NCBI GenBank assembly: GCA_036562215.1
Contig: DATCKO010000153.1
Location: forward strand, 1-42,569
Direction of reading: 5' to 3'
DNA length: 42,569 bases
Source: Haloplasmataceae bacterium
GTDB taxonomy: Bacteria; Bacillota_I; Bacilli_A; Haloplasmatales; Haloplasmataceae
The first letter of the stretch is position 1; each line of letters opens with the position of its first letter. Below, in pieces: positions 1 through 39,050 of this stretch. The notes beneath the pieces were generated by a model. That model was given only the letters and a program-made list of their open reading frames with translations. It searched no databases and was not told where the DNA came from. Both the position numbers and the translations under genes were made by a program.

Positions 1-69
1 ATATTTAATTGTATATCTTTGTTTTTTATTGTAAAATTATTTTAAAAGTGCGATATGGGGAGTGATTTT

Positions 70-3000
70 ATGGAACTGCTCAATAATAGATATCGGATCA
101 TTAAACATTTATATCAAAATAATTTATATAATTCCTACTTAATAAATGATTTATGGGAAGATAATCATATAATGCAACTTAATATATTGAATCTTGATAA
201 TATACATAAAAGTATTATTGATTTTTATTCAGATGAATTTATTAAACTCATAAATTATAATAATGAAAATATCGTGCAAATTTATAATTTTAATGTAATT
301 TCACATATCGATAATAAAAAAGCTAATCGAGAGCAATATTTCTATACTTGTGAATATATAGAAAACCCTTTAAATATATTAGATTATACTAAAAATTTTG
401 ATCTTAATGATTTAATGAATCTCTTTATCAAATTATGTAATATCATTAATTACTTAAATTTACGTGGTCATATTTATGAAGCTTTGAATATAAACAATAT
501 CTATATTATAAAAAAAGATAATGAATATCAAATAAAAATAAAAGATATTGCGACTAAAATACTAGAGAAAAATGCTTTTATTAATGAAAACCCTGATGAT
601 AAATACTTTATGTCACCAAAATATCTCTCTGGTGAAGCTCCGTCTTTTAAACATGATTTATATTCTTTAGCAGTTGTGTTATTGACCCTATTAAGTCGCA
701 ATTGTAATTTTAAGGCTAATCCAAAAGATAACCTTAATATGTTTATAGAAGATCTCAATAACCATAAAATCAATCGCTTTAATGAAGAAGAAATTAATAC
801 CATAAATAAATTGTATCCACTATTGAAAAAGATTATTTATCTAGAAGATGATGATGCTTTTAGAAATCTAACCCGCTTCCGGATAACCTTAAATGAGCAA
901 CTTGGAACTGATTATACATATAAACATCAAAATGAGTATAGTAAGATTAACTTCCATTTAAAAATAATTGGTCGTGATAAAGAGGTAAATAAAATCTTAC
1001 ATAATTATGATAACATGCTCAAGTATAATCCATTTACCAGAGTATACTTAGTCCAAGGAGAAATGGGTACGGGTAAAACTAGATTTTTAGAAGAGATTAA
1101 ATTTCGTTTCGAACTTAAAAAAGCTAATCTTTATTATAGTTTCAGTTTAAGCAGTTTAAATGAAAGCAGCGACAAAATGTGGGTTGATATTTTAAGAAAG
1201 TTAATCCTAGAAACTGATACAGAGATTATTGAAAAATATGAAGCTGAATTAGCAAAATTTTTCCCAGATATTGTGGATAGAAATAATTTAAATAAAGAAC
1301 GTATAGAAGAACATCAAACTAAGTACCGTTTATTAAATCGTATTGCTAGTTTTATAAGTGAAAGTGTCAAAAACAAACCTACTGTTTTTATAATTGATAA
1401 TCTAGACTTAGCTAATGAGTTTACTCTAGATACATTCTCTTATTTATACTCAAAAGTAATTTGTAATGAAAAAGTTATCTTTATTTTTTCATATAATGAA
1501 AATTCTATCTTTAATAACCCTATGTTTGCCCGTTTTATATCAACCATACGATACAAAAAAGACTGGGAATTGGTTCCAATTACTAATCTTAACCATACTC
1601 AATCGGGAGAACTAATTAAAAGCATACTTGATATTTTTTATACACCTGTAAAACTAACTGAAAAAATTTATTCCCAATCTTATGGAAATCCACTATTTAT
1701 TAGTGAAGTAATTAAAGACCTATATAATCGCAAGATTCTTTTTGTGGATAATAATACTGGTATTTGGCATCTAGATTTACCAGAAGATGATTTAGACTAT
1801 AAATTACTAATAATACCAAATACTATTGAGCAGGCTGTTTTAAATCAACTAAAGGATATTGATGAAATAAGTCATGATATTCTAAAAACCATGTCCATCT
1901 TTCCAAATCCGATTTCTGTTGATGATATTGCTTATTTTATTGATAAGGATCTAAAAGAAATTAACTATTATATTCAAGAACTTATTAAAAAAGGTATTAT
2001 TTCCAAGTTAGTCGGTATATCAGAAAACCTTTATACTATTAATAATAAAGTCCTTAAAGATATTATTTACGATAGAATAGAACCTGAAGAAAGAGTTAAT
2101 AAACATTATCTAGTTACACAAATGTTAGAACAAAAAGCAGAAATAAACATTGATGATTTAATTTATCATTATGAAAGAGCTAATAATAAAGAGAAATTAA
2201 TTGAATATTGTTTAAAAAATGCTCAGATAATGCATGATAGCAGAAATTATCATGAAGAAGTTAATAATTTAAAGAAAGCATTAGTATATATTGATAAAGA
2301 TTTTGATATTACAGAAGTTAATATTCGAATAGGTATTATCTATTACAATATTAGTCAAGATAATCTAGCCATTAACTATTTCCTAGAAGCAGAAAAATAT
2401 GCCTTAAAAACTAACAATATCAAACATCTTATCGATATCAATAGTAATTTAGCTAAAATTTACATAGGACTAAATGATATTACCGAAGGAGAAAAACGAC
2501 TAATAACTACTCGTAGTTTATTAGATCAATATGATTATTTTGAAGCAGAGTTAGAATATAAATTTACCCTAGCTTTTAAGCTTCGCCAAGAAAAGCAATT
2601 TGATAAGAGTATAAGTTATTTAGATGAGATAATTGCCCAAGCTGATGATTATCCTTTAATAAAAGCTAATTGTTTTAGAACCAAGGCTTTAATTTATCAA
2701 ATTGGTGATAAGATTTCTGAAGCATTAGAATTATATGAAGAAGCAATCAAATTGTTTGAAAATACTGGTAACATAAGAGGTTCTTTAAGTTGTTTAAATA
2801 ATACAGGTGCCATCTATAGTGATATCTATCAAAATACTGAAAAAGCTCTAAAATATTATTTAAAAGTTAAAGATTTTAGTGAAGAATATAATATCGAACT
2901 TTATGGTTTAATCGCACTAATTAACATTGCTTGTATTCATGAACTACGAAATAATAATAAGTTAGCCTATGATTACTTCAAACAATCATTAGAAATTGCC

Positions 3001-5499
3001 TTGCAAGGTAATTATAATAATGAAGTTTTCTTCATTTACAATATGCTTACTAAAACCTGTATTAGGTTAAATAAATATTCTGAAGCATATCAATATCATA
3101 ATCTAATTTTACAAGAAATTGAAAAATCTTCTTACCAAAGTCTTGATATCTATGAATTTTATAAAGCAAGTGCTGATTTATATTATGCTTTTGGCGATTT
3201 TGTTAAAGCTCAAGAGTTTATTAAAAAGACAACTGAGTTTTATGAAAGTGGAGTAAGTTATGAACAGTTCCTATATACAATTCAATTAAGTATAATAAAC
3301 TTACGATTAAAAGATGAATACGAAACTGATATACAAGATATTATTAAAACCAGTCAAAAGTTTATATCACCAGATTTAAAAGTATTAACTTTAAGTAATG
3401 CGGCAATAGCTTTAGGAGAAAGAAAAGACTATAAAAACGCTCGCTTATTATTAAAAGAAATTAAAGAATCTTTAACAAATAAATTACATGAAGAAATTTT
3501 AGCTAAATATTATGTAGCTCTAGGTATTAATGATTTAGAAAATAAGACATCTGATTATTTACAAGAAGCTCTTAATTTAGCAAAGAATCTCGGAAATAAA
3601 GTATTAGTTGCCCAGATTTCAACCTTAATTGGTGATTATTATTATTCCATCGATAATTATTACCAAGCAGTTAGTTTTTACATTGAAGCTTGGGAACTTC
3701 TTAAGGAATTAATTAACGATGTACCTAAAGAATTTAAATTGACATTTATTAATAGTTATAAGTACGCTCGTATCTTTTATCGTATTAAATATATTTGTTA
3801 TATCATTATTGATAATAATACAATTTCTAATACCGATATTGAAGAAACATTTAATAAATATGATGTAAAATCTTTAGAAGAATTGAACTCCATTTTAAAC
3901 ATCGATTTAACTAAACAATTTATGAACAATAAAGATTTCATGGAGTTTGTTTGTCAGCAATATATTGCCAATCTACCAAATCAAAAAAGTGATATTACCG
4001 AAGTAATATCCCAATTAAGTAATAATACCGTAAGTAACATTGAATTATTGCTTAATTACTTAGCTGCAGCTACTTTAGCTACAAATGGTTTCTTGGCTTT
4101 AGAAAACAATAAAAATGATTTTAATATAATATCAGCATTAAATGATAAGTATAAGATTCCGAATAACAGATATCTTTTTGAAAAAGCTAAGCAATCATTA
4201 GAACCTATTTGTGTTTCTAAAAACATGACCACAAATAATATCGATGGTAATATCTTTTCTGATGATGTTAAAGCGTACTTGTGTATACCTATTACTAGTA
4301 ACCTATTCCAAAATAATTCTGATACATCAATTATTGAAGATGCGAATAGTATTATAGGTTATTTATATTTAGAGTCCGACCGGGTTATTAATAATTTTAA
4401 TGAAGCTGGATTAAAAAAATGTCTCGATGTCATAAACTTTCTCGCTTTACTTATAGAAAAACATCAATTAATTATTGATGCTTCTATTGATAAGTTGACC
4501 GGAGCACTCACAAGAAAATACCTTGAAAATACAATAAAAAGAGCGATTATTAACGCTAACATAAATAAGTCTGTTTTCAGTATTATCATGTACGATTTAG
4601 ATAATTTCAAAAATATCAACGACCGCTTTGGTCATCAAACAGGTGATGAAGTATTAGCATCCATATCACGTATTGTTCTAAACAATATTGACAAAACAGC
4701 ATCAATTGGTAGATATGGTGGTGAGGAATTTATTATTATCCTCCCTGGGGTAGATAGTAGAGAAGCCTATTCTATCGCCGAAGACTTACGCATTAAAATA
4801 TCCAAAGAAGGTATTTTAAGTGACAAAGCTGAAGTTACTGTAAGTATGGGAATCGCCACATACCCAAAACATGGACAAACCATGGATGAATTATTCGAAA
4901 AAGTTGACCAAGCACTATACCATGGAAAAGAAACTGGTAAGAATAGGTGTTTTATATGGAATGAAAAATTTTCCCATAGTAAAACAAAAACTAAGGACAA
5001 GCTAACTGGTATTATTTCTGGAAACACTGTTCAAGATGCTAGAAACATGCTAGCAATCGTTGAGTTAATTCAATTAACTAATAAAAATATTGCTAAAGAG
5101 TCTAAGATTTATCAATTTTTAGGTCGAGCTATAGAGATTATTGATGCTCAGTATGGTTATTTATTGTTAATAGATAATAATCAAATAATCCACAAATATG
5201 CAAGACAAGCACAAAAAGAAGAGTGGTTAAAAAATATTAATATTAATCAAAAAATAATTAATTCAGTTTTAGAAAGTAAACAAGGGGTTTATTTAATTGA
5301 TTGGGATGATATTGGCAAACAAGATTTAATCACAGGACTTCCAGAATGGGATTCCATTCTCATAATTCCAGTTTTCGTGAAAGATGAAATTAAAGCCATC
5401 TTGTATTTTACCGTATCAACCCGAGAAAAAGAGTTTAGTATTAATGAATATAATTTTATTAATATATTAAGCGATTTAATACCCCCAATCCTACCATAA
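70..5499 (+). CDS. Giant multidomain signalling protein: degenerate Ser/Thr-kinase-like domain, AAA/STAND P-loop NTPase, TPR-like repeats, GAF-like, GGDEF diguanylate cyclase, C-terminal GAF
   Basis: Uninterrupted ORF (track 55..5499). GGGGAG at 57-62 lies 7 nt before the ATG at 70 and there is no SD before ATG 55, so 70 is preferred. Kinase-like blocks are recognisable (YFMSPKYLSGE, HDLYSLAVVLLTLLS). The Gly-loop, VAIK Lys, HRD (GHIYEALNINN) and DFG (KDIA) are all substituted. Walker A GEMGTGKT is at nt 1057-1080, with Walker-B-like VFIIDNLDLA. GGDEF hallmarks: DLDNFKNINDRFGHQTGDE and RYGGEEF (nt 4717-4731). Confidence 0.8.
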   Translation: MELLNNRYRIIKHLYQNNLYNSYLINDLWEDNHIMQLNILNLDNIHKSIIDFYSDEFIKLINYNNENIVQIYNFNVISHIDNKKANREQYFYTCEYIENPLNILDYTKNFDLNDLMNLFIKLCNIINYLNLRGHIYEALNINNIYIIKKDNEYQIKIKDIATKILEKNAFINENPDDKYFMSPKYLSGEAPSFKHDLYSLAVVLLTLLSRNCNFKANPKDNLNMFIEDLNNHKINRFNEEEINTINKLYPLLKKIIYLEDDDAFRNLTRFRITLNEQLGTDYTYKHQNEYSKINFHLKIIGRDKEVNKILHNYDNMLKYNPFTRVYLVQGEMGTGKTRFLEEIKFRFELKKANLYYSFSLSSLNESSDKMWVDILRKLILETDTEIIEKYEAELAKFFPDIVDRNNLNKERIEEHQTKYRLLNRIASFISESVKNKPTVFIIDNLDLANEFTLDTFSYLYSKVICNEKVIFIFSYNENSIFNNPMFARFISTIRYKKDWELVPITNLNHTQSGELIKSILDIFYTPVKLTEKIYSQSYGNPLFISEVIKDLYNRKILFVDNNTGIWHLDLPEDDLDYKLLIIPNTIEQAVLNQLKDIDEISHDILKTMSIFPNPISVDDIAYFIDKDLKEINYYIQELIKKGIISKLVGISENLYTINNKVLKDIIYDRIEPEERVNKHYLVTQMLEQKAEINIDDLIYHYERANNKEKLIEYCLKNAQIMHDSRNYHEEVNNLKKALVYIDKDFDITEVNIRIGIIYYNISQDNLAINYFLEAEKYALKTNNIKHLIDINSNLAKIYIGLNDITEGEKRLITTRSLLDQYDYFEAELEYKFTLAFKLRQEKQFDKSISYLDEIIAQADDYPLIKANCFRTKALIYQIGDKISEALELYEEAIKLFENTGNIRGSLSCLNNTGAIYSDIYQNTEKALKYYLKVKDFSEEYNIELYGLIALINIACIHELRNNNKLAYDYFKQSLEIALQGNYNNEVFFIYNMLTKTCIRLNKYSEAYQYHNLILQEIEKSSYQSLDIYEFYKASADLYYAFGDFVKAQEFIKKTTEFYESGVSYEQFLYTIQLSIINLRLKDEYETDIQDIIKTSQKFISPDLKVLTLSNAAIALGERKDYKNARLLLKEIKESLTNKLHEEILAKYYVALGINDLENKTSDYLQEALNLAKNLGNKVLVAQISTLIGDYYYSIDNYYQAVSFYIEAWELLKELINDVPKEFKLTFINSYKYARIFYRIKYICYIIIDNNTISNTDIEETFNKYDVKSLEELNSILNIDLTKQFMNNKDFMEFVCQQYIANLPNQKSDITEVISQLSNNTVSNIELLLNYLAAATLATNGFLALENNKNDFNIISALNDKYKIPNNRYLFEKAKQSLEPICVSKNMTTNNIDGNIFSDDVKAYLCIPITSNLFQNNSDTSIIEDANSIIGYLYLESDRVINNFNEAGLKKCLDVINFLALLIEKHQLIIDASIDKLTGALTRKYLENTIKRAIINANINKSVFSIIMYDLDNFKNINDRFGHQTGDEVLASISRIVLNNIDKTASIGRYGGEEFIIILPGVDSREAYSIAEDLRIKISKEGILSDKAEVTVSMGIATYPKHGQTMDELFEKVDQALYHGKETGKNRCFIWNEKFSHSKTKTKDKLTGIISGNTVQDARNMLAIVELIQLTNKNIAKESKIYQFLGRAIEIIDAQYGYLLLIDNNQIIHKYARQAQKEEWLKNININQKIINSVLESKQGVYLIDWDDIGKQDLITGLPEWDSILIIPVFVKDEIKAILYFTVSTREKEFSINEYNFINILSDLIPPILP

Positions 5500-5506
5500 T
5501 AAAGTT

Positions 5507-5539
5507 AAAAGACTTGGGTCAAAAAATCCCAAGTCTTTT
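5507..5539. terminator. Bidirectional intrinsic terminator between convergent genes
   Basis: 12-bp perfect stem AAAAGACTTGGG / CCCAAGTCTTTT with a 9-nt loop. A-run and T-run arms give a U-tract on either strand. It sits between the stop at 5499 (+) and the stop at 5543 (-). Confidence 0.75.
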
Positions 5540-5542
5540 AAT

Positions 5543-6157
5543 TTACTTTATCCATCCCACTCTCTTTGCCCATTCCAGACGTCTTTTTTGTCTTTCATTA
5601 TATGATAAATTAGGTTTTTCATTATATTCTTTCGCTAACTCTCTCATTCTATTAATAGCATCTTGTAATGGAGGTAACCCAACTTGCTTACGATATATAT
5701 CAACATTATCCTCATCTTCAATTTTCCAAGGACTCAATTCATCATTTTCATCATAATCAAACTGTGTACCATATTTTTGGGGACGCATTTCAAAATAACA
5801 AATTCGATCATATAAAACTGCTACTTCGCTCGGATAGATATCTTTATTTTGGGCTAACTCCATTAGTATTGGGACACTTATTCTTTGCAGTTCTGGACAT
5901 GATATCGCATTCTGAAGAATAGTCCACGCTGATAAGCTTGCTTCATAACCGACTTTTTTTACCGTAGGCCAGCCCATCTCATATATTATACTTAATAGTC
6001 TTTGAGCATTTTCTTGGTGTATTTTTTCCAAATCAGGATTATATTCTTCTGCAAGATTATTACTCTTATATAACTTCTCTTGCATAGATAAATCCTTTTT
6101 AACCATGTCGATTAATTCTCTGGCTATTTCGGAAAAATCATTATTCAGAATTATCAC
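5543..6157 (-). CDS. Hypothetical protein, DUF6624-like (last gene of the fhs-folD-purB transcription unit)
   Basis: 204-aa ORF. By-eye resemblance to the DUF6624 pattern (GWPT..VG..AS.SAW.ILQ ... LYDR ... PQKYGTQ). The start is uncertain: GTG at 6157 is embedded in AAGAGGTG with no spacing, and the next in-frame ATG is at 6106. Confidence 0.55.
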   Translation of the reverse strand: MIILNNDFSEIARELIDMVKKDLSMQEKLYKSNNLAEEYNPDLEKIHQENAQRLLSIIYEMGWPTVKKVGYEASLSAWTILQNAISCPELQRISVPILMELAQNKDIYPSEVAVLYDRICYFEMRPQKYGTQFDYDENDELSPWKIEDEDNVDIYRKQVGLPPLQDAINRMRELAKEYNEKPNLSYNERQKRRLEWAKRVGWIK

Positions 6158-6205
6158 CTCTTATGTTTAAGTATATTCTCCTAAACATATGATGATGACA
6201 AATAC

Positions 6206-7498
6206 TTACAATCCAAGTTTTTCAAAAACTTCATCCACTGCTTTTAAATGATAAGAAATATTAAAGCAATCGTCAATCTCTTTTGTAGATAGATACTTAG
6301 TAATTTCATTATCGTTAATTAATAAATTTTTAAAAGCTATATTTTTTTGGTAGGCTTCAATGGCTTTTGGTTGTACTAAATCATAAGCTTCTTCTCGAGA
6401 AAGACCTTTATCAACTAATTTTAACAATACTCTTTGCGAAAAAATAACACCGTTAGTAAGGTAAATATTTTGCTCCATTCTATTTTCAAAAACTACTAAA
6501 TTTTCCAGAATCTTAGCAAAACGATTCAACATATAATCAAGTAAAATGGTAGCATCAGGCATAATAATTCTCTCCACCGAAGAATGACTGATATCTCTTT
6601 CATGCCAAAGAGGAATATCCTCAAAAATTGGAATAATATAACCTCTCATGACGCGAGCACATCCTGAGATATTTTCAGACCCTATAGGATTACGTTTATG
6701 AGGCATAGCTGATGAACCTTTTTGCTTTATATCAAAATACTCTTCAACTTCCCTAATTTCAGTTCTTTGCAAGTGTCTTATTTCTGTTGCCATTTTTTCT
6801 AAAGTTGTTGCAATTAAGGCTAAGGTAGTAATATAAAAGGCATGTCGATCTCGTTGAAGTGTTTGTGTAGAAATTTTAGCTGCGTTAATACCTAGTTTAG
6901 AACATACATATTCCTCAACAAAGATAGGAATATTAGCATGGGTTCCCACAGCACCAGACATCTTACCTATTTCAATATCTCTTCTTGCAAAATCAAAGCG
7001 TTTTAAGTTACGCTCCATTTCTGCATACCATAAAGCTAATTTCATACCAAAAGTCGTAATTTCAGCATGGATACCATGGGTTCTTCCGATTTGAACAGTG
7101 TGTTTATATTTAAGAGCTTTAGCTTTAAGTATTTCAATTATTCTTAGTATATTATCTCTTAGTAAATCATTAACTTGCTTATATATATATCCATATGCTG
7201 TATCAACAATATCAGTAGAAGTTAAGCCATAGTGAATCCATTTTTTTTCTTCTCCTAAAGTTTCACTAACTGCTCTAGTAAAAGCAATGACATCATGCTT
7301 AGTTTCAATTTCTAACTCCTTAATCCTCTCAATACTAAATGAAGCTTTTTGAGCTATTAACTCTACATCTTCCATAGGTATAATACCGAGTTTCCCCCAC
7401 GCTTCACAAGCAAGAATTTCACATTTTAACCAAGCTTGATATTTTGCTTTTTCACTCCAAAGGGAACTCATTTCTTTTCTACTATACCTATCAATCAT
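6206..7498 (-). CDS. purB: Adenylosuccinate lyase
   Basis: [23 protein letters not shown]-terminus and the [10 protein letters not shown] signature. GGAGG lies 7 nt upstream of the second ATG (7498); the track start is 7501. Confidence 0.93.
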
Positions 7499-7515
7499 CA
7501 TTAACCTCCATTAAT

Positions 7516-8367
7516 TTACTTAACTAATCTTTTCGCTGCTTCTAAAGTATTTTCTAGTAACATGGTAATTGTCATTGGTCCTACACCACCAGGCACAGGT
7601 GTAATATATCCCGCTACCGATAAGGCATTATCATAATCAACATCACCACATAGTTTATCAACAACACGATTTACACCTACATCAATGACAATAGCTCCTG
7701 GTTTTATCATATCAGCTGTAACAAATCGAGGTTTACCGATTGCAGCTACTAAAATATCAGCTTCTTTTGTGTAGGATTTCAAATCTTTAGTACGAGAATG
7801 ACAAATAGTCACAGTAGCATTTTCACGAAGTAATAATTGACTGACAGGTTTGCCAACAATATTACTTCTACCAATTACTACAGCATGTTTACCATTAATA
7901 TCAATATTTGTTTCTTTAATCATGCGAATAATTCCTGCAGGTGTACAAGGTAAAAAGCATTCTTCATTAAGAAGCATTTTTCCTACATTGATAGGACTAA
8001 AACCATCAACGTCCTTCTTTACACTTATAGTATTAATGATTTTGTTTTCTGAGATATGTTTTGGTAATGGTAATTGTACTAATATACCATGAACACTATC
8101 ATCTTGGTTCAACTTTTCGATTTCCTGAATGAGTTCATTCTCGGAAATATCTTCCGGAAGCTTGATTAAAGTTGATTTCATATCAGTTTGTTCACAGCCT
8201 TTTTGTTTACCTCTAACATAAGAGACACTAGCTGGATTATCACCAACTAGAATTACCACAAGATGCGGAACAACTTGTTTTTCAGCAATAAACTGATTTA
8301 CTCTAACTTTTAAATCAGCACGTATTTTATCAGCTAATTCTTTACCACTAATTACTATAGCACTCAT
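7516..8367 (-). CDS. folD: Bifunctional 5,10-methylene-THF dehydrogenase / methenyl-THF cyclohydrolase
   Basis: [17 protein letters not shown] and PGGVGPMT motifs. SD AAAGGAGAGG lies upstream of the ATG. Confidence 0.93.
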
Positions 8368-8394
8368 ATTTTCCTCTCCTTTATCTTAACAAAT

Positions 8395-8421
8395 AAATGA
8401 AGTCTAGATTAGACTTCATTT
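8395..8421 (-). terminator. Perfect 12-bp hairpin overlapping the aminotransferase stop codon (internal attenuator or processing site within the operon)
   Basis: AAATGAAGTCTA-GAT-TAGACTTCATTT. On the minus-strand RNA it is followed by AUUUGUU. The TGA stop (8416-8418) lies inside the 3' arm. Confidence 0.4.
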
Positions 8422-9507
8422 ATTATATTTAATTGCCTTAAATTCAAGTATTTTATCTATTAAATCATCAATATCTTCATTAGTAAACTCACTCAATATA
8501 CCAATTCGTAACATTTTATCAGTATATTTTCCTTGTCCTTTTGAAACAGATATATCATAACGATTATCTAAGAAATCCACTAAATCTGGAATATCGTAAT
8601 TACTATTAGCAAGTACAGGAACTAAGACATTACCTTTTATGTTTTCATCTTTAATAAACAATTCAAAACCAATTTCTTGTACTTTACTTTCAATATATTT
8701 ACGTAAATCACTTTTTTCTTTAATAATGTTATCTATTCCTTTTTCTAACAAGGAATTTAAAGCTATATCTAAAGCTAGTACTAAAGAAATACTTGGAGTA
8801 TATGGATTTTGACCTTTTTTATAATATTCAATATATTTTTGATAATCCCAATAGTATTTAGGGATATTCGATAAACTTAATCTAGACTTAGCTTTTTCAG
8901 ATAGAGCTACAAAAGCTAAACCTGGAGGTAATAGAAAACCTTTTTGACTTGATGCTAAGGCACAATCGACATGCCACTTATCAAAATAGAATGGATGATG
9001 TATCATGCCACTAATACAATCTGTAATAAGTAAGGCGCTGGTAGTATGTACAAATTCTCCTAATTTCTCAATATCATTTAGTACCCCTGTTGAGGTTTCA
9101 TGGTAAGTTACAAAAACACCTTTGATATTAGGATATTTTTGGAATATATCTTTTACATCTTGTAAATTATAGGTTTTCCCCCATTCATAATCTAAAGAAT
9201 GAACATTTAAACCATAGATTTTACATAATGCGATAAAACGCTCACCAAAAAATCCTGTATTAATTACTAAAACCTCATCACCTTGGGAAAATAAATTAAT
9301 GACACTAGATTCCATAGCACCAGTACCAGATGAAGTTAATATTAAGACATCTTCATTGGTAACAAAGATTTTTTGCAGTTTTTCAGTAACCCTAAATAAA
9401 ATATTTTTATAATCATTCATTCTATGATGTATGATATCTTTCGATAATTGAATGCGAATATACTGTGGTATATTACCTGGTCCTGGAGTAAATAGTTTCT
9501 TTGACAT
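8416..9507 (-). CDS. PLP-dependent class V aminotransferase (serine-pyruvate/alanine-glyoxylate or phosphoserine aminotransferase-like)
   Basis: Class V fold pattern: SSGTGAMES, and SSQKGFLLPPG containing the PLP lysine. AAGAGGTG sits before ATG 9507, whereas the track start 9516 is a GTG inside the SD. Confidence 0.8.
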   Translation of the reverse strand: MSKKLFTPGPGNIPQYIRIQLSKDIIHHRMNDYKNILFRVTEKLQKIFVTNEDVLILTSSGTGAMESSVINLFSQGDEVLVINTGFFGERFIALCKIYGLNVHSLDYEWGKTYNLQDVKDIFQKYPNIKGVFVTYHETSTGVLNDIEKLGEFVHTTSALLITDCISGMIHHPFYFDKWHVDCALASSQKGFLLPPGLAFVALSEKAKSRLSLSNIPKYYWDYQKYIEYYKKGQNPYTPSISLVLALDIALNSLLEKGIDNIIKEKSDLRKYIESKVQEIGFELFIKDENIKGNVLVPVLANSNYDIPDLVDFLDNRYDISVSKGQGKYTDKMLRIGILSEFTNEDIDDLIDKILEFKAIKYNK

Positions 9508-9532
9508 ACTAACCACCTCTTAAAATGAAATA

Positions 9533-11209
9533 TTAGAACAATCCCGTAGCATTTCCTTTTTCATCAATATCCATAGCCATTGCTGCAGGAACTTTAGGCA
9601 ATCCAGGCATCGTTAATACCGTACCTGTTAAAGCAACTAGGAAGCCTGCACCAATTGAAGGTCTAAATTCTCTAACGGTAATATGGTAATTACGAGGTCT
9701 ACCAAATTTTTTCGGATCATCACTTAATGAGTTTTGTGTTTTTGCCATACAGATAGGTAATTTACCCCATCCTAATGCTTCATACTCAGCCATTTGCTTT
9801 TTGGCTTCTGTTGTAAATTCTACACCATTAGCACCATAAACTTTTGTAGCGATAGTTTCGATTTTCTTTGTGATAGAATCATTTAAATCATATAAATAAT
9901 CAAATTTGTTATCTGGATTATTATCAATGACTTCAATAACTCTTTTGGCAAGCTCTATTCCACCTTGACCACCGAATTCCCATACTTCTGACATTTCAAT
10001 TGGATGATTATTTTCTTTACACCAATTTAAAAGAGCTTGGACTTCATCATTAGTATCAGCAACAAATTTATTTAAAGCAATAACATAAGGTAAATTATAT
10101 TGCTTAATGGTATCAATATGTTTTTCCAAGTTTTCAATACCTTTTATAACTGCTTCCACATTTTCTTCTTTTAAATTTTGTTTATTTACACCACCATGCA
10201 TTTTTAAAGCACGAATAGTAGCAACAATGACAACAGCACTTGGTTTAAGATTAGCAATTCGACATTTAATATCGAAGAATTTTTCTGCTCCTAAATCAGC
10301 ACCGAATCCAGCTTCAGTCACAACATAATCAGCTAACTTTAATCCTAATTTCGTAGCGATAATAGAGTTACAACCATGAGCAATATTTGCAAAAGGTCCA
10401 CCATGTACTAATACTGGGGTATTTTCCACTGTTTGGACTAAATTAGGTTTTATCGCATCTTTTAACAATAATGTTAAAGCACCTTCAACCTTTAAATCAC
10501 CAACAGTAACAGGTTGTTTATCATAGTTATAACCAATAACAATCTTAGCTAAACGATTCTTTAAATCAGTTAAGTCTTTAGATAAACATAATACAGCCAT
10601 TATTTCTGAAGCAACGGTGATATTAAAACCATCAGCTCGCATAATACCATTTACACTGCTTCCTCCACCAATTATTACTTCACGTAATGCCCGGTCATTG
10701 ATATCAACACAACGTTTAAAAGTTATGTTCTTTGGATCAATACGTAATTCATTACCTTGATAAATGTGATTATCTATTAAAGCTGCTAATGTATTGTTAG
10801 CAGTAGTAATAGCATGTATGTCTCCTGTAAAATGTAAATTTAAGTCTTCCATAGGAACTACTTGGGCGTATCCTCCACCGGCTGCACCACCTTTTACTCC
10901 CATAACTGGTCCTAAAGATGGTTCTCTTAAAGCAATAATCGCTTTTTTATTTAATTTTGCAAAAGCTTCACCTAATCCTACGGTAGTAGTAGATTTACCT
11001 TCGCCTGCTGGAGTCGGAGTGATTGCTGTTACTAGTATGAGTTTTCCATCTTTTTTATCCTTCAACTTATTAAACAAATCAAGTGATAATTTTGCTTTGT
11101 ATTTTCCGTATAGTTCAATATCATCATCACTTATCCCAAGACTTTCAGCAATTTTTTGAATAGGTTGTAATTTAGCTTCTTGAGCAATTTCTAAATCTGT
11201 TTTATACAT
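9533..11209 (-). CDS. fhs: Formate-tetrahydrofolate ligase
   Basis: [16 protein letters not shown]-loop and full-length similarity to Fhs. SD TAGGAGGG lies upstream. Confidence 0.95.
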
Positions 11210-11297
11210 TTTATCCCTCCTAATTTTTTAAAGGAACATTCTAAAGAGTGTTCCTCACATAAAAAGCAAAAATATTCCAATGGAAATATCCATTTCT

Positions 11298-11326
11298 ATT
11301 TTAAAGCGTTATCATAATTTTTGCAA
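11298..11326 (-). promoter_or_regulatory. Putative sigma-A promoter of the fhs operon
   Basis: Minus strand: TTGCAA (11321-11326), 17-nt spacer, TAAAAT (11298-11303), about 85 nt upstream of the fhs ATG. Confidence 0.5.
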
Positions 11327-11440: not shown

Positions 11441-11980
11441 ATGAATACCAATAAAATAACATATTCGGGATTTCTTATTGCACTAGGAGTATTATTACCA
11501 ATTATTTTCCATTTTATACCAGGAAATATAGGACCAATATTGTTACCTATTCATTATGCATCATTTTTAGCAGGTGGTTTTTTTGGACCATATATCGGCA
11601 TGCTAGTTGGTTTATTAACACCAATAATAAGTATTTTTCTTACAGGTATGCCCAATTTCCCAGTTATTATCTATATAACTTTTGAGACCATAATGTACGG
11701 TTTAATATTTGGCTATATATATTATAAGAAACACCTAAATATTTATCTTGCTTTGATTACTGCGATGCTCATAGGAAGAATAGTTAATATCTTGGGAAAT
11801 TATCTTGTTTCAGAAATTATTTTTTATGACATTGCTAAACCTTTTATTTTTATAAATATTCTAAATAACCTTACCTTAGGACTAATAGGAGCAATTATGC
11901 AAATTATTATTATACCACTCGTTATTAATAGAGTTAATATAAGTTTAGCAAATATCAATATTTTTAAGAAGGAAAAATAA
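11441..11980 (+). CDS. ECF transporter S component (substrate-capture subunit, substrate unknown)
   Basis: 179 aa, about 6 TM. The pattern LPIHYASFLAGGFFGP..G...GLLTPIIS..LTGMP ... MLIGRI is typical of the ECF_trnsprt family. SD GGGAGG lies upstream. No ECF A/T genes are nearby. Confidence 0.72.
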   Translation: MNTNKITYSGFLIALGVLLPIIFHFIPGNIGPILLPIHYASFLAGGFFGPYIGMLVGLLTPIISIFLTGMPNFPVIIYITFETIMYGLIFGYIYYKKHLNIYLALITAMLIGRIVNILGNYLVSEIIFYDIAKPFIFINILNNLTLGLIGAIMQIIIIPLVINRVNISLANINIFKKEK

Positions 11981-12376: not shown

Positions 12377-12407
12377 AAAAGTTATCCACAAATTGTGGAT
12401 AACTTTT
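12377..12407. terminator. Bidirectional terminator hairpin made of two perfect inverted DnaA boxes
   Basis: 14-bp stem AAAAGTTATCCACA / TGTGGATAACTTTT with loop AAT. TTATCCACA is at 12382-12390 and TGTGGATAA at 12394-12402. It lies between the DUF1893 stop (12376) and the purA stop (12413). Confidence 0.8.
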
Positions 12408-19143: not shown

Positions 19144-20799
19144 TTACATATTTTCCGGTGCACTAACACCTATTAAATTCAATGCGTTTCTTAAAGTAAT
19201 TTGCGTAGCTTTAACAAACGCTAACATTTGTTCTGTTTTCTCAATATCCTCTTCATTAATAACCTTTTCAGCATTATAAAAACTATGAAAAGCTTGTGCT
19301 AAATCATTTATGTAATTTACTATAAAATGAGGAGCTCTTTTTAAAGCACTTTGCGCAACTACCATAGGGAAATCAATAAGTTCTTTCAAAACATTTATAG
19401 CCTTTTCCCCAGTTATATGTGAATAAATATCTTCTCTAGCAATATTTAATTTTTTTTCTTGAGCTTGTTTCATAATACTACAGATTCGCGCATGAGCATA
19501 TTGGGCATAGAATACTGGGTTTTCATTAGATTTTTTAGTAGCTAAATCGATATCAAAGTCCATTTGTGAATCTCCACTTCGCATCGCAAAGAAATAACGC
19601 GTAGCATCTACTCCTACTTCTTCAATTAAATCACGAATAGTAATAGCTTTTCCAGAACGTTTAGACATTTTATATTCTTGATTATCTTTAATCAAACGAA
19701 CCATTTGTATTATTAATACTTCTAATTTTTCAATATCACCTGATAAACAGGCAATACTTGCTTTTAATCGTGGAACATAACCATGATGATCTGCGCCTAA
19801 AATATCAATCAATTTGTCATATCCACGTTCTAACTTATCAATATGATATGCGATATCAGGAGTTAGATATGTCAAAGTATTGTCACTTTTTCGTAAAACA
19901 CGATCTTTATCATCACCAAAAGCAGTTGATCTAAACCAAGTCGCTCCATCTTGAACATAAACATAACCGGTTTTATTTAATTTATTAATGGCTTCATCTA
20001 CCTTATTATCGTCATATAAACTTTGCTCACTAGTCCAAATATCAAAATGAACATTAAAATCCTCTAAATCTCTTTTAATTTTGTTTAGTTCATACTTTTT
20101 CGCAAATTCACGAAATATCTGATAGCGTTCATTTGATTCTTCTAAATATTTATCTCCATATAAGGCAACTAATTCTTTGGCAATGTCAATAATATCATGT
20201 CCATAATAGCCATCTTCTGGCATAGTCACATTTTTCCCCAATAATTCTTCATATCTACATATGGTTGATAAGGTAAGATTATGAATTTGTTTACCAGCAT
20301 CATTAATATAATACTCTCTTGTTACATTATATCCTGCTTTTTCTAATATCCGACATAATGAATCACCAATAACAGCACCCCTAGCATGTCCTAGGTGCAA
20401 ATCTCCTGTTGGATTTGCTGACACAAACTCCACATTTACTTTTATATTTTTACCTATATCTGATTTTCCGTATTCTTCATCAAGCGAAATTATTTCATTA
20501 ATAATTTTAGTGATAAATGATGTTTCAATAAAGAAATTAATAAACCCTGGACCAGCTACTTCCACCTTTTCTACATTATATTCTTTATGATTAAATCTGT
20601 CGACTATTTCTTGGGCTATTTGTTTTGGTGATTTTCGAAAAGTTTTTGCTAGTTGCATCGCACAATTAGTAGAAAAATCTCCATTAGCTTTATCTTTTGG
20701 TTCTTCTAAAATAACATCATAATCTTCACAGCCCATTTCCCTAATAATATCTTTCAAATGGGCCTTAATATCTTCTTGCAACTTGATTACCTTATTCAT
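19144..20799 (-). CDS. argS: Arginyl-tRNA synthetase (core enzyme, own SD and ATG)
   Basis: HIGH motif (SANPTGDLHLGHARG) and KMSKS motif (MSKRSG). AAGGAG lies 8 nt before ATG 20799. The ORF has no upstream stop and continues in frame to 21261. Confidence 0.9.
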   Translation of the reverse strand: MNKVIKLQEDIKAHLKDIIREMGCEDYDVILEEPKDKANGDFSTNCAMQLAKTFRKSPKQIAQEIVDRFNHKEYNVEKVEVAGPGFINFFIETSFITKIINEIISLDEEYGKSDIGKNIKVNVEFVSANPTGDLHLGHARGAVIGDSLCRILEKAGYNVTREYYINDAGKQIHNLTLSTICRYEELLGKNVTMPEDGYYGHDIIDIAKELVALYGDKYLEESNERYQIFREFAKKYELNKIKRDLEDFNVHFDIWTSEQSLYDDNKVDEAINKLNKTGYVYVQDGATWFRSTAFGDDKDRVLRKSDNTLTYLTPDIAYHIDKLERGYDKLIDILGADHHGYVPRLKASIACLSGDIEKLEVLIIQMVRLIKDNQEYKMSKRSGKAITIRDLIEEVGVDATRYFFAMRSGDSQMDFDIDLATKKSNENPVFYAQYAHARICSIMKQAQEKKLNIAREDIYSHITGEKAINVLKELIDFPMVVAQSALKRAPHFIVNYINDLAQAFHSFYNAEKVINEEDIEKTEQMLAFVKATQITLRNALNLIGVSAPENM

Positions 20800-21210
20800 T
20801 TTGTCAACTCCTTGTATACTCACATTCATTTGATAATTACTAATAATAGTATTATCAAGTATTATATCATAATTTAGGTAAATGTTATCATCTGTATAAC
20901 AATATTTATTAGTATAAGCAGTTATTTCAGATGATATATACTCATTTTTAAAAAAGCCACTGGTGTATTCATTTTCAATAAATTTTTGTCTCATCTTCAC
21001 AAAACCACTTCGCACAACTACTATCTCTTTATTATCACAGATTAAAGTTAATTGATTATAATCTGGAGAGTTCATTATGGGTTCTTTACACCTGATAAAG
21101 GTTTTTTGATTATGCAAATACCGTGTACCTTCCTCATAAAACTGAATTTCCATTTTTTGACCTTGATTATTTATGACCATTTTGAAGTTAACATTTATTC
21201 TTTCCTTCAT
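20800..21210 (-). CDS. DUF1934 (YwiB-like) domain, in frame with argS and lacking its own stop codon
   Basis: About 137 aa: MKERINVNF..FYEEGTRYLHN..VVVRSGFVKMRQKF..YTSGF..LNYDIIL.. matches the YwiB/DUF1934 beta-barrel pattern. It is linked to the ArgS Met by QGVDK. Candidate starts are ATG 21210 and 21225; the track start 21261 is a TTG. Confidence 0.6.
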
Positions 21211-21323
21211 AAACATCACACTCATGAATCTTAATAAATATAAATTATATTGATTATTCAAAAAAAAGCAATATATTTTTAATAATATAACTATTATTAT
21301 CGCTATTTTTCTTTTTATACATT

Positions 21324-21346: not shown

Positions 21347-23059
21347 TTATAAAATAGCTTTATATAGTCTAGCATAATACCCATTACTATTTATTAAATC
21401 TTCGTGTTTTCCTCTTTCTTCAATACCATTTTCATTTAAAACTATTATCTCGTCAACATTCTTCAAAGTAGATAAGCGATGAGCAATAATTATACTTGTT
21501 CGGCCTTCTGCAAGACTTTCTAAGGCCTCTTGAACTAAACGTTCAGTTATATTATCTAAAGCTGAAGTTGCTTCATCTAGTATTAGAATTGGGGGATTTT
21601 TTAAGAACACTCGAGCAATTGCGATCCTTTGCTTTTGTCCTCCTGATAGTTTAACTCCTCTTTCACCGGTCAAAGTGTCATATCCTTTTTCTAAACTCAT
21701 GATAAAGTCATGAATACGAGCTTTTTTGGCAGCTTCTATTACTTCTTCCATGGTTGCATCCGGTTTTCCATAGAGAATATTATCTAATATTGTCCCATAG
21801 AAAATATAAACATCTTGTTGAACATGCCCTATAGCTTTCCTTAAAGTATGTAAATCGTATTTTTTGATATTTACACCATCAATTAGTATTTCTCCTTCAG
21901 TTACGTCATAGAAGCGTGGGATCAACTGTGATATCGTGGTTTTACCTACTCCAGTTTCACCAACTAAACCAATACTTTGACCCTTTTTTATGGAAAAACT
22001 TAAGTTTTGAAATACGAAGTTCTCATTTTTATCGTAGCGAAAACTCACATTTCTAAATTCAATATTACCTTGAGGATTGGTTAAATATATTGGATTAATA
22101 GGGTTTTTTATCTTAGGTTCTATTTTCATAATTTCATAAAATCTTTCAATTCCCGCAATTCCTGTCTGGATTTGTTGAATGGAGTTAATAATACGTCTAA
22201 TAGGCTGAATAGTATAATTAATATATAAAATTGATGAAAATAATACTCCCTCAGAAATATTATCACTATATAATAGATAACCAGCAATTAATAAAATGGC
22301 TAAATTAAAAACATTTATTATAAAATCTGTTCCAGTCGAAAAGATGGTCATCGCTTTATATGCTCCGCCCCAACTATCACGATATTTTGCGTTATTTCTA
22401 CTAAATTTTTGGTACTCATAATCTTCATTAGTAAATGATTGAGATAATCTAATACCACCAATTGAGCTTTCAATTTGCGAATTTATTTCTGCATGTTCTT
22501 TACGTACTTCTCGGAAACCTTCTAACATTGCTTTTCGACGGGCTACCGAAAAAATTAATAGAATAATCACAAATATTAAGGCTGATAAAAACAAACGATA
22601 ATCGTATGTTAACAAAATACCTAACGAACCACCAAGCATTAAAACAGAGATAAAGATATCTTCAGGCACATGGTGACTCATCTCCGCGATATCTCTTAAA
22701 TCAGCAACTAATCGATTCATTATCATACCGGTTTTATTTTCATCAAAATAAGTAAAATTCAAGGTTTCAATTTTCTGAAATAAGTCACTACGCATATCAT
22801 GTTCAATTCTTGTTCCCATAATATGTCCCCAATAGTTCACTATTACTTCTAAGAAAATCTTAAAAATATAAAGACCTAATAATACAGCTGCTACTGTAAG
22901 CATAAGAGACATTTTTTTATTAGGAATATAATCATCGATGAATAAACCAGTGACTAAAGGGAATAGTAAGTCGAGTCCAGCTATTATTAACGCTGCAATC
23001 ATGTCAATAATAAATAAACCTATGTGTTTTTTATAATAGCTAATAAATTTTTTAAACAT
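21347..23059 (-). CDS. ABC transporter, fused permease/ATP-binding protein (MsbA/multidrug-exporter type)
   Basis: N-terminal 6-TM domain. Walker A GETGVGKTT, signature LSGGQKQR, Walker B ILILDEATS. SD TAGGAGG lies upstream. Confidence 0.88.
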   Translation of the reverse strand: MFKKFISYYKKHIGLFIIDMIAALIIAGLDLLFPLVTGLFIDDYIPNKKMSLMLTVAAVLLGLYIFKIFLEVIVNYWGHIMGTRIEHDMRSDLFQKIETLNFTYFDENKTGMIMNRLVADLRDIAEMSHHVPEDIFISVLMLGGSLGILLTYDYRLFLSALIFVIILLIFSVARRKAMLEGFREVRKEHAEINSQIESSIGGIRLSQSFTNEDYEYQKFSRNNAKYRDSWGGAYKAMTIFSTGTDFIINVFNLAILLIAGYLLYSDNISEGVLFSSILYINYTIQPIRRIINSIQQIQTGIAGIERFYEIMKIEPKIKNPINPIYLTNPQGNIEFRNVSFRYDKNENFVFQNLSFSIKKGQSIGLVGETGVGKTTISQLIPRFYDVTEGEILIDGVNIKKYDLHTLRKAIGHVQQDVYIFYGTILDNILYGKPDATMEEVIEAAKKARIHDFIMSLEKGYDTLTGERGVKLSGGQKQRIAIARVFLKNPPILILDEATSALDNITERLVQEALESLAEGRTSIIIAHRLSTLKNVDEIIVLNENGIEERGKHEDLINSNGYYARLYKAIL

Positions 23060-23307: not shown

Positions 23308-24195
23308 TTAGTCAATAAGATTAACAATATCATCTAGATTAAGAATTTTTAATATCCGGTTTAAATCTTCATTACTCACATAATCAATGACGATTTTACC
23401 ACCATGCTCTTTATTAACAATTTTAGTTTGAGTACCTAGTTTTAAGGTTATTTGCTCTTCCAAATAATCTAAATTGGTGTCTCTTTCTATTTTTTTTGAT
23501 TCTTTAATTATAGAAGTAACAACTTCTTCTGATTTTATAAGTTGTTCAAGAGAGCGAACAGATAAATTTTCCTTTTTAATTTTATCAGCTAATTCGATAA
23601 TGCGTTTCTTATCATCAAGACCAGCTAAAATTTTCGCATGACCAAACTCGATTTCTCCTTCGTTTAACATATTTTGAACTGGTTCTGGTAAATTCAAGAC
23701 ACGAAGTACATTAGTAATATGGCTTCTACTTTTTCCAAGACGTATTGCTACTTCTTGTTGGGTCAAATTATATTGCTCTATAAGCATTTTATATGCAAAT
23801 GCTTCTTCTATAACAGTTAAATTCTCTCTTTGGAGATTTTCTAATAAGGCTACTTCAGCCATTACTTGTGGATTAATATCTCTTATGATAGCAGGAATTG
23901 TTTCTTTTCCTAATTTCATTGAAGCCTTAAATCTTCTTTCACCAGCTACTATGTAATAACCAATACCATCATTAATCTTCGTAACAATAATTGGTTGTAA
24001 AACACCATGCTCTTTAATGGAGTTAGCTAATTCTTCTATTTTTTCATCATCAAATTTTTTCCGAGGTTGAAAAGGATTTTTCTTTAATTCTGTTAATCTA
24101 ATTTCCACAATTTGCTCATTATCTTGTTTTGTTTCATCAAAATTTAAATTGTTTTTGAATAAAGCATCAAGACCCTTACCTAATCTACTAGACAT
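23308..24195 (-). CDS. parB: Chromosome partitioning protein ParB/Spo0J
   Basis: ParB box GERRFKA and HTH LGKSRSHITNVLRVLNL. It overlaps the 3' end of soj by 8 nt. Confidence 0.92.
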   Translation of the reverse strand: MSSRLGKGLDALFKNNLNFDETKQDNEQIVEIRLTELKKNPFQPRKKFDDEKIEELANSIKEHGVLQPIIVTKINDGIGYYIVAGERRFKASMKLGKETIPAIIRDINPQVMAEVALLENLQRENLTVIEEAFAYKMLIEQYNLTQQEVAIRLGKSRSHITNVLRVLNLPEPVQNMLNEGEIEFGHAKILAGLDDKKRIIELADKIKKENLSVRSLEQLIKSEEVVTSIIKESKKIERDTNLDYLEEQITLKLGTQTKIVNKEHGGKIVIDYVSNEDLNRILKILNLDDIVNLID

Positions 24196-24952
24196 TGTTT
24201 TTCTTCACTTCCTCTGCTAAATCCAAATAGACTTTAGCACCTTTAGATGTTGGAGCATAATCAATAATTGGCAATCCATGTGATGGTGATTCAGCTAGAT
24301 GAACATTGCGGGGAATAATTGTTGAATAAACCTTTTCTCTAAAGAAAGTCTTAACTTCTTTAGTAACCTCAATTCCCAAATTAGTTCTAGCATCGAACAT
24401 CGTTAATAATACGCCTTCTAATGCTAAATTACTATTTAAATATTTTTGTGTTATTCTAATTGTATTCAATAATTGCGTTAACCCTTCAAGGGCATAATAT
24501 TCACATTGTACAGTAATAATAACAGAATCAGCTGCAGTTAAAGCATTAATAGTTAATAACCCCAAAGAAGGTGGACAATCAATAATAATATAATCATATT
24601 TTTCTTTATATTTTCTTATCGCATTGCTTAAACGGTATTCTCGATGTTGTGTTCCAACTAATTGTACTTCAGCACCAGCTAAATCCATTGTAGATGGAAT
24701 AATATCGAGATTATTAAGACGCGTTTTAATTATTATATCATCAGCATTAACTTGATCAATTAAAATATCATATATACTTTTCTTTAAATCGCCTCGATTG
24801 ATACCTATTCCTGTCGTAGCATTACCTTGAGGGTCAATATCAATTATCAATACCTTGTCTCCTAAGCGATTTAGACTAGCGGCTAGATTTATACTTGTAG
24901 TGGTTTTTCCCACGCCACCTTTTTGATTAGCAATCGCAATTATCTTTCCCAT
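24188..24952 (-). CDS. parA: Chromosome partitioning ATPase ParA/Soj
   Basis: Deviant Walker A NQKGGVGKTT. AAGGAG lies 8 nt before ATG 24952; the track start 24970 is a TTG. Confidence 0.93.
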   Translation of the reverse strand: MGKIIAIANQKGGVGKTTTSINLAASLNRLGDKVLIIDIDPQGNATTGIGINRGDLKKSIYDILIDQVNADDIIIKTRLNNLDIIPSTMDLAGAEVQLVGTQHREYRLSNAIRKYKEKYDYIIIDCPPSLGLLTINALTAADSVIITVQCEYYALEGLTQLLNTIRITQKYLNSNLALEGVLLTMFDARTNLGIEVTKEVKTFFREKVYSTIIPRNVHLAESPSHGLPIIDYAPTSKGAKVYLDLAEEVKKNNV

Positions 24953-25022
24953 AATTGATCTCCTTGTCAAAAATTTATATTAATATTTTACCATATTAAT
25001 ATAAGAAAAGATAGTACAAAAC

Positions 25023-25055: not shown

Positions 25056-25071
25056 CGTTTTCTGTTGAATA

Positions 25072-39020: not shown

Positions 39021-39050
39021 GCATCTCACCTGTTATTAGGTTTAGTTACC

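Follow-up and report, generated by a model that had tools for sequence, protein, structure and literature searches.

Diguanylate cyclases are switched on by dimerizing sensor domains such as REC, PAS, GAF and phytochrome domains, and some bacterial proteins join a Ser/Thr kinase to a STAND (signal transduction ATPase with numerous domains) module, PknK of Mycobacterium tuberculosis being an example. STAND proteins are described as ADP-bound closed monomers, autoinhibited through an arm and a sensor, that an inducer converts to an ATP-bound multimeric hub, with the effector located at one terminus or the other (PMC6468293; an excerpt of PMC4381067). Catalysis by GGDEF domains requires dimerization of the GTP-loaded domains, according to an excerpt of PMC7825114. 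We analyzed a 42,569-nucleotide stretch of DNA from a Haloplasmataceae bacterium (contig DATCKO010000153.1; hereafter the window) and found that the gene at positions 55..5499 encodes these modules in one polypeptide. The layout is a pseudokinase, a nucleotide-binding oligomerization domain (NOD, consisting of a nucleotide-binding domain, NBD; a helical domain, HD; and a winged-helix domain, WHD), an arm and tetratricopeptide repeat (TPR) region of ~640 amino acids (aa), a GAF domain (GAF-A), a helix, a GGDEF domain that would make cyclic di-GMP (c-di-GMP), and a second GAF domain (GAF-B). The protein is most likely a very large, soluble, cytoplasmic and self-contained signaling enzyme.

Parts of this layout are found in several described systems. 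MalT and PH0952 (6MFV; PMC6468293; an excerpt of PMC4381067) have the NOD motifs, the winged helix, the arm and the TPR-type sensor in common with the protein described here, and in MalT, as here, the effector follows the sensor. A weak match to TPR_MalT was found in our protein and is common among its relatives. The output of MalT is a LuxR DNA-binding domain, whereas here it is a GAF-GGDEF-GAF cyclase, and there is an additional pseudokinase at the N-terminus. Pkinase-AAA_16-TPR proteins (P0323, P0329, P0360 and P0110) share the order of kinase fold, AAA_16 NOD and TPRs, but they end after the TPRs and have intact kinase motifs, in contrast to the dead kinase and added cyclase module here. 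The C-terminal 544 aa have the same arrangement of sensor GAF domain, long helix and canonical GGDEF domain as IsPadC (5LLW) and Dcsbis (PA2771; 4ZMU), which are dimeric sensors of 340-670 aa without a STAND module, TPRs, a pseudokinase or a GAF domain after the GGDEF domain. The NOD matched positions 477-922 of TIGR03903, a TOMM system kinase/cyclase fusion whose output is a class III cyclase (E = 3.4e-16), but with a score of 58 bits against a cut-off of 706. LIC12324 of Leptospira (PK-AAA_16-GAF-SpoIIE; PMC5100919) follows a similar design and also combines a kinase-like domain, AAA_16 and a second output, in that case a PP2C phosphatase; P0120, a relative with the PK-AAA_16-GAF-SpoIIE layout, has intact HRD and DFG motifs. 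The general design of a kinase-like domain, AAA_16 and a second output is thus already catalogued elsewhere.

An earlier note on this DNA, made from its letters, had described one open reading frame (ORF) joining a kinase-fold domain, a STAND-type P-loop, TPR-like helical repeats, a middle GAF-like module, a GGDEF domain and a terminal GAF domain. This parsing was upheld throughout by Pfam, AlphaFold and hhalign. The ORF at 55..5499 is a single intact frame of 1814 codons with no interruption. Residue numbers throughout are counted from the ATG at 55, although translation most likely begins at the second ATG, at position 70, giving a product of 1809 aa. The start at 70 is favored because it is preceded by a Shine-Dalgarno sequence, because the gene is called as 1809 aa on a near-identical public contig, and because the N-termini of relatives agree with it: in almost all relatives found by exhaustive search, residue 1 aligns with our residue 6 (M6). 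The sequence upstream of the ATG at 55, read directly, has no comparable Shine-Dalgarno sequence. The features of the gene are as follows.

57..62, plus strand: Shine-Dalgarno sequence GGGGAG, 7 nt 5' of the ATG at 70, read from the sequence.
70..5499, plus strand: most likely extent of the coding sequence, 1809 codons and a stop codon (the listed ORF starts at 55).
70..924, plus strand: pseudokinase with a Hanks kinase fold, aa 6-290 (Pfam Pkinase, phmmer and MAFFT alignments, AlphaFold and Foldseek, family statistics).
952..2082, plus strand: STAND NOD with NBD, helical domain and winged helix, aa 300-676 (AAA_16, weak HTH_69, Foldseek).
1057..1080, plus strand: Walker A motif GEMGTGKT, aa 335-342 (conservation in 105 sequences).
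1387..1407, plus strand: Walker B motif FIIDNLD, aa 445-451 (conservation in 105 sequences).
1684..1698, plus strand: STAND GxP motif GNPLF, aa 544-548 (conservation in 105 sequences).
2083..4014, plus strand: arm and TPR-like helical repeat sensor, aa 677-1320 (TPR_12, TPR_MalT; AlphaFold helical at both edges).
4027..4401, plus strand: GAF-A, the divergent middle GAF domain, aa ~1325-1449 (hhalign, AlphaFold, alignment to IsPadC and Dcsbis).
4402..4485, plus strand: long linker (signaling) helix from GAF-A to GGDEF, aa 1450-1477 (helix 180-207 of the C-terminal model).
4480..4956, plus strand: GGDEF diguanylate cyclase domain, aa 1476-1634 (PF00990, TIGR00254, Foldseek, invariant residues).
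4690..4701, plus strand: position of the inhibitory site (I-site), with DKTA in place of RxxD, aa 1546-1549 (alignment of 105 relatives).
5017..5496, plus strand: GAF-B, the terminal GAF domain, aa 1655-1814 (GAF_2, conservation, model).

These assignments came from profile searches and from two AlphaFold models, one of aa 1-770 and one of aa 1271-1814, each made with an alignment of 44 sequences. Both models were confident. The N-terminal model had a pLDDT of 85.4 and a pTM of 0.82. Using Foldseek, we found that its first lobe matched PknB-type kinase domains (template modeling score, TM, 0.72-0.74) and that its second part matched ADP-bound Apaf-1 (1z6t; E = 7e-9) and PH0952 (6mfv; E = 3e-8). 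The pseudokinase and the NOD are predicted to form a single compact unit. In Pfam searches, Pkinase matched aa 45-252 with 33.9 bits, just over the cut-off of 31.7; AAA_16 matched aa 304-466 with 48.2 bits (cut-off 32.6); a winged-helix family, HTH_69, matched weakly at aa 615-652; TPR_12 matched in five stretches, with 66.6 bits; and a sub-threshold match to TPR_MalT covered aa 953-1174. When the sequence of the NOD and TPRs was searched against the PDB, the only match was a TPR one (FLU protein) and no solved STAND protein was matched; structure comparison was used instead.

The C-terminal model (pLDDT 84.6) consisted of an α/β GAF-like module, a 28-residue helix, the GGDEF domain and a second GAF domain, and aligned best to the GAF/PHY-coiled-coil-GGDEF cyclase IsPadC (5llw) and the GAF-GGDEF cyclase Dcsbis (4zmu), over 355-415 columns. 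Its GGDEF domain had a TM of ~0.9 to solved isolated GGDEF domains (Foldseek) and matched PF00990 at aa 1476-1631 with 138.5 bits (cut-off 23.8) and TIGR00254, a generic NCBIfam model of the GGDEF domain, with 152.5 bits (cut-off 37.4). GAF_2 matched aa 1689-1809 with 28.4 bits in a scan of the full-length sequence, with 34.6 bits when the C-terminus was scanned alone (cut-off 28.6), and the terminal domain has the family-specific motifs IDWD, GxPxW-S and KEF. The middle module had no Pfam match when scanned alone. Its family profile matched that of the terminal GAF domain with an hhalign probability of 95.4% (E = 1.7e-8), and this match, together with the GAF-like fold of the model, is the basis for calling it GAF-A. 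Both modules can therefore be placed among GAF domains, GAF-B by its profile and GAF-A by the profile-profile match and the model.

We examined the catalytic status of the STAND module and the GGDEF domain in an alignment of 105 full-length relatives. The Walker A residues G338, G340 and K341 and the Walker B aspartate D448 were invariant. In the GxP motif, which touches adenine in PH0952 (PMC6468293), G544 was invariant and N545 and P546 were present in 100 and 104 of the 105 sequences. Judged by these residues, the STAND NTPase motifs are intact. Both the P-loop, Walker B and GxP motifs and the NBD-HD-WHD-arm-repeat fold place the protein among MalT-like STAND proteins of the AAA_16 type.

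In the GGDEF domain, the metal-binding residues D1514 and D1516 and the base-reading residues N1522 and D1531, which are spaced nine residues apart, were invariant in the 105 relatives, as was GGEEF at 1555-1559 except for one sequence that has GGDEF. The combination of this aspartate with GGEEF is the configuration of GTP-specific diguanylate cyclases (PMC6456294). The domain is thus predicted to be competent and, given the invariant base-reading residues, specific for GTP; the earlier note had come to the same view from the motifs DLDNFK, NDRFGHQTGD and RYGGEEF, all of which are present. It had also reported that DKTA stands in place of RxxD at the I-site (1546-1549), which we confirmed, and had proposed a cyclase free of product feedback. 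That proposal fits the subclade to which this protein belongs and does not extend to the family, since RxxD is kept by 57 of the 105 relatives and, in a second set, by 74 of 112 (about 55-65%). Loss of the I-site is a trait of this subclade only.

The kinase-fold domain gave a different picture. It has no counterpart of the Gly-rich loop (GxGxxG). In alignments to real kinases, VAVKVL aligned with MQLNIL, which puts Asn43 at the position of the β3 lysine, and HRDLKxxN aligned with YEALNINN (within GHIYEALNINN), so that the histidine is replaced by Y141, the catalytic aspartate by A143 and the lysine by an asparagine. The DFG motif aligned with DIA. These placements agree with those of the earlier note, which had claimed that every kinase element that could be aligned was replaced. 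That is correct for the Gly-rich loop, the β3 lysine and the HRD aspartate. It is not correct for the DFG aspartate, kept as Asp164 (and in 99 of 105 relatives), for the catalytic-loop asparagine, kept as Asn148 (86 of 105), or probably for the αC glutamate, Glu61 (73 of 105). A lysine at the β3 position and an aspartate at the HRD position were found in 20 and 24 of the 105 relatives, and six residues (N10, R12, Y13, D32, D86 and Y141) are family-specific and nearly invariant.

Because the Gly-rich loop, the β3 lysine and the catalytic aspartate are all gone, we place the domain outside the active Hanks-type kinases, as a pseudokinase that belongs with PF00069 by its fold, profile and metal ligands. 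Canonical phosphotransfer by such a domain would not be credible. No HRDxKxxN loop was found in any of 217 full-length relatives, which indicates that the dead kinase is a trait of the family and not a local decay. In the exhaustive search, the nearest relatives outside the family were the Pkinase-AAA_16-TPR proteins, whose output is an active kinase; they are 1100-1350 aa long, lack a GGDEF domain, and keep the Gly-rich loop, [IL]ALK, HxD[IL]KPxN, DFG and APE. The simplest reading is that the pseudokinase is a former effector, a kinase that decayed in the lineage that gained a C-terminal cyclase as its effector. It probably now serves as a regulatory, autoinhibitory or docking module. If so, the family may capture how an effector kinase decays to a pseudokinase once a new effector has been fused.

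We consider it probable, with some reserve, that the protein is a MalT-type STAND switch in which inducer- and ATP-driven multimerization unites GGDEF domains and so leads to synthesis of c-di-GMP. In the resting state, the NOD would clamp ADP and contacts with the arm and TPR sensor would keep it closed; given the predicted packing of the pseudokinase against the NOD as one compact unit, the pseudokinase probably helps to hold it closed. A small molecule or a protein in the cytoplasm would bind the TPR superhelix as the inducer, and GAF-A might supply a second input. Release of autoinhibition would allow ADP to be exchanged for ATP and the NOD to multimerize head-to-tail, and the multimer would juxtapose the GAF-A, helix and GGDEF modules of neighboring protomers. 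Two GTP-loaded GGDEF domains could then pair productively and make c-di-GMP. Because the RxxD inhibitory site is missing, output in this protein and its closest relatives would be ended by the NTPase cycle and not by product inhibition. The earlier note had likewise proposed an NTPase switch that gates c-di-GMP synthesis, and the architecture, on which that proposal was founded, fits it.

Several points weigh against this model. The second Walker B residue is Asn449 (asparagine in 72 and aspartate in 33 of the 105 relatives), and because it is not acidic, ATP hydrolysis may be slow or absent, which would make the NOD a one-way or binding-only switch. A head-to-tail STAND ring does not readily lead to the antiparallel twofold GGDEF dimer, and activation might instead proceed through dimers or by steric relief. 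The predicted models cover aa 1-770 and 1271-1814 and not the center of the TPR region, and there is no candidate ligand. A GAF domain C-terminal to the GGDEF domain is without precedent among the matched structures, and the model leaves GAF-B unaccounted for. Finally, our literature searches yielded no paper on any member of the family.

We weighed other explanations as well. One is that the kinase-like domain is an atypical enzyme, with a displaced lysine as in WNK or a transferase activity as in SelO, and that it controls the cyclase by autophosphorylation or AMPylation. The strong conservation of both metal-binding residues, the near-invariant family residues and the partial retention of the αC glutamate, the β3 lysine and the HRD-position aspartate among relatives are what such an enzyme would lead one to expect. 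However, the Gly-rich loop, β3 lysine and catalytic aspartate are jointly missing here, none of the relatives has a canonical catalytic loop, and at 50% between orthologues the domain ranks with the least conserved regions of the protein, which better fits a scaffold or sensor than an active site. We regard an atypical enzyme as distinctly unlikely. A related and bolder idea combines a STAND "signalosome" that acts by induced proximity, a prokaryotic apoptosome-style hub with c-di-GMP as its output, with a pseudokinase that is not inert, being a nucleotide- or metal-binding sensor or an atypical transferase. Retention of both metal ligands and of the family-specific invariant residues is the reason for supposing that the pseudokinase is not inert. 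This combined idea is unlikely. If it were true, the switch would receive a second cellular signal, or be connected to a bona fide Hanks kinase, through the pseudokinase, and the family would be the first example of a dinucleotide cyclase activated by a STAND signalosome. The protein might also be mainly a scaffold or receptor, in which the GGDEF domain binds GTP or c-di-GMP or the TPRs localize other factors. Large TPR arrays are typical platforms for protein-protein interaction, and many GGDEF proteins work through interactions, according to an excerpt of PMC5635695. We think this highly improbable: the catalytic GGDEF residues (metal-binding aspartates, base-reading asparagine and aspartate, and GG[D/E]EF) are invariant across the family, and receptor-type GGDEF domains are usually degenerate at those residues yet keep the I-site, which is the site lost here.

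The earlier note had also raised the possibility of an alarm role like that of Avs proteins, in which a phage protein would be recognized, the STAND module would oligomerize, and a c-di-GMP alarm would trigger a defense effector. A STAND module with TPRs is indeed the logic of Avs-type sensors as well, PADLOC gave weak matches (MkoA, 1.4e-7; PD-T4-6, 7.8e-6), and some genomes have at least two paralogues, including a tandem pair in Treponema. The PADLOC matches were confined to the kinase fold, though, and no Avs or defense-STAND model was matched. The locus is a housekeeping one (purB, folD, fhs, purA, inositol monophosphatase and nucleobase permeases), ~34 kb from the replication origin and syntenic around an orthologue of 58% identity. 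There was no effector or defense neighborhood in the eight loci examined and no effector beyond the GGDEF domain. The N-terminal module had no phage match, and its four replicon matches were weak and all on megabase-size, non-mobilizable replicons. Defense genes are expected to vary in architecture, whereas length and architecture here are rigid across >200 clusters. In addition, c-di-GMP is a general lifestyle messenger, and its use as an alarm would clash with normal signaling. An immune function is therefore extremely unlikely, and the MalT-type switch remains the reading that we prefer.

The family to which the protein belongs is large. A word-index search recovered >100 full-length relatives of 1736-1848 aa with 25-58% identity and the same Pfam content as the query; the 105 relatives used above are likewise 25-58% identical. 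With the first 770 aa as the query, exhaustive HMMER searching detected the N-terminal module in 230 clusters (50% identity level; E ≤ 1e-30), a lower bound for the family. Among 139 new top matches, 112 were 1650-1850 aa long, and 106 of those 112 had both GG[D/E]EF and Walker A. Nearly all members are ~1800 aa and share the layout. Their hosts are Clostridia, Tissierellia, Bacilli, oral Treponema and the Haloplasmatales-like organism described here, with named members in Clostridium (estertheticum, tagluense, acetobutylicum and others), Tissierellia, Proteiniborus, Caloranaerobacter, Paucisalibacillus, Acetoanaerobium and oral Treponema, all of which are annotated in their sources as "diguanylate cyclase". 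Several Clostridium genomes have at least two copies (for example P0047 and P0069, or P0044 and P0052), and in Treponema sp. (CP051200.1) two paralogues lie in tandem, 10 nt apart, at 660-5990 (1776 aa) and 6001-11307 (1768 aa) of locus L005. A word-index search with the terminal GAF domain alone returned one fragment, which was uninformative about other contexts of that domain, and the genome collection, scanned with the single protein, gave no match except to an unrelated GGDEF gene from a Methylophilus metagenome-assembled genome (MAG).

Conservation between our protein and its 58%-identical orthologue differed by part: 71% in the NOD, 70% in the GGDEF domain and 66% in GAF-B, and ~50% in the pseudokinase, the TPR region and GAF-A. 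The NOD, GGDEF domain and GAF-B are the most conserved parts, and the pseudokinase, TPRs and GAF-A the least. Such a pattern would be expected if a fixed switch and output engine had variable inputs, and it supports the MalT-type model.

The literature searches found no description of a STAND-gated diguanylate cyclase, of this architecture or of this pseudokinase family and, within their reach, no study of any cyclase under the control of a STAND ATPase. The earlier note had asked whether the architecture might prove to be that of a common, characterized family. It is common, yet uncharacterized: the family is widespread and well populated, and neither unique nor surprising in principle. Its interest is moderate and mainly mechanistic; there is no sign of an immune system or of mobility. 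A large, rigidly conserved family of single polypeptides could be a clean system for asking whether nucleotide-driven multimerization controls synthesis of a second messenger. The gene also indicates that a Haloplasmatales-like lineage close to Mycoplasmatota makes c-di-GMP, through a stably inherited gene near the origin.

The window contains the chromosomal origin of replication (oriC), and the GC skew flips at ~39 kb. The features of the origin region and its surroundings are as follows.

38682-39029, minus strand: rnpA.
39082-39216, minus strand: rpmH.
39345-39494: four DnaA-box-like 9-mers, each with one mismatch, between rpmH and dnaA.
39548-40921, plus strand: dnaA.
41068-42195, plus strand: dnaN.
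23308-25872: soj, spo0J and a noc-like parB, with rsmG, mnmG and mnmE nearby.

The best named matches of MnmG were to a Mycoplasmatota bacterium (79%), Haloplasmataceae (77%), Haloplasma contractile (72%) and Turicibacter (67-69%), which makes the host Haloplasmatales-like and not a Clostridium. Our gene lies ~34 kb to the left of oriC and is transcribed head-on to the replication fork. The earlier note had counted it as one of three genes transcribed against the fork; this holds when transcription units are counted on the left side of oriC, where the three head-on units (our gene, ECF-S/DUF1893 and trkAH) comprise five genes. On the downstream side, a convergent DUF6624 gene is followed by purB, folD, an aminotransferase gene, fhs and purA. 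We looked for a terminator-like hairpin in the 44-nt gap to the DUF6624 gene and found none. Upstream, on an extended public contig, is a divergent inositol monophosphatase gene, beyond which are nucleobase permease genes. On that contig (L001), a PyrR site and a purine riboswitch (5388-5491 and 8845-8946) precede two Xan_ur_permease genes.

The orthologue of 58% identity (P0002), present on two metagenomic contigs, has a locus that is identical in order: Xan_ur_permease, two TMEM164 genes, Xan_ur_permease, Inositol_P, the STAND-GGDEF gene and DUF6624. The neighbors in the two loci are 36-75% identical (five of six within 55-75%), and the gene has diverged by about the same amount. This synteny and neighbor-like divergence argue for stable vertical inheritance and not for recent acquisition. 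These findings, and the lack of phage matches, do not support the accessory origin that the earlier note had suggested. The G+C content of the gene is 25-28%, compared to ~30% in its neighbors. We considered this as a sign of foreign origin and rejected it, because other parts of the window, at 25-28 kb and 37-42 kb, have a G+C content just as low (26-27%) and because the relative shows synteny at this locus.

No partner gene was apparent, as the earlier note had also stated: both flanking genes point toward or away from the gene in the opposite orientation, and no conserved neighbor was found across the eight loci examined. Six of these, from a Clostridium sp., C. estertheticum, C. acetobutylicum, Treponema and two MAGs, have no neighbor in common. 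The DUF6624 gene is directly downstream in the window (5543-6157, minus strand) and in the orthologous loci L007 (13470-14054) and L008 (10731-11315), but not in more distant relatives. HD_5/HD (HD-GYP-like) genes occur in C. estertheticum (L004, 3808-4926, minus strand) and C. acetobutylicum (L006, 13871-14908, minus strand). We rejected them as partners because they are two to three genes away, not adjacent, and were seen neither in the other loci nor here. No GGDEF, EAL, HD-GYP or PilZ domain was found in the 32 other ORFs of the window that were scanned (of 36 of at least 100 aa). Rfam searches of the window and 10 kb upstream found no c-di-GMP riboswitch; the elements detected were a T-box, a purine riboswitch and a PyrR site.

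We made several additional observations. The near-identical public contig is not the same as the window throughout: one single-nucleotide polymorphism is visible just upstream of the large gene, and the gene for an ECF-transporter S component, whole in the window (179 aa; 11441-11980), is called as two pieces (98 and 71 aa) in L001 at 21372-21910. At 12382-12402, two copies of the DnaA-box 9-mer TTATCCACA form a perfect inverted repeat with 3 nt between them; the repeat falls within the 36 nt that separate the convergent genes for DUF1893 and purA, and would form a 9-bp hairpin. Between the noc-like parB and rsmG is an ORF of 410 aa (25894-27126, minus strand) with no Pfam match above noise and no NCBIfam match. 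At 19144-21261 (minus strand), DUF1934 (aa 26-146) is in frame with arginine-tRNA ligase (aa 162-705) with no intervening stop, and either a real fusion or an internal argS start is possible. A T-box leader at 35488-35710 (127.6 bits; minus strand) is followed not directly by a tRNA synthetase gene but by an RmuC-family ORF (34221-35450), an unusual first gene under a T-box, which overlaps asnS (32849-34237) by 17 nt.

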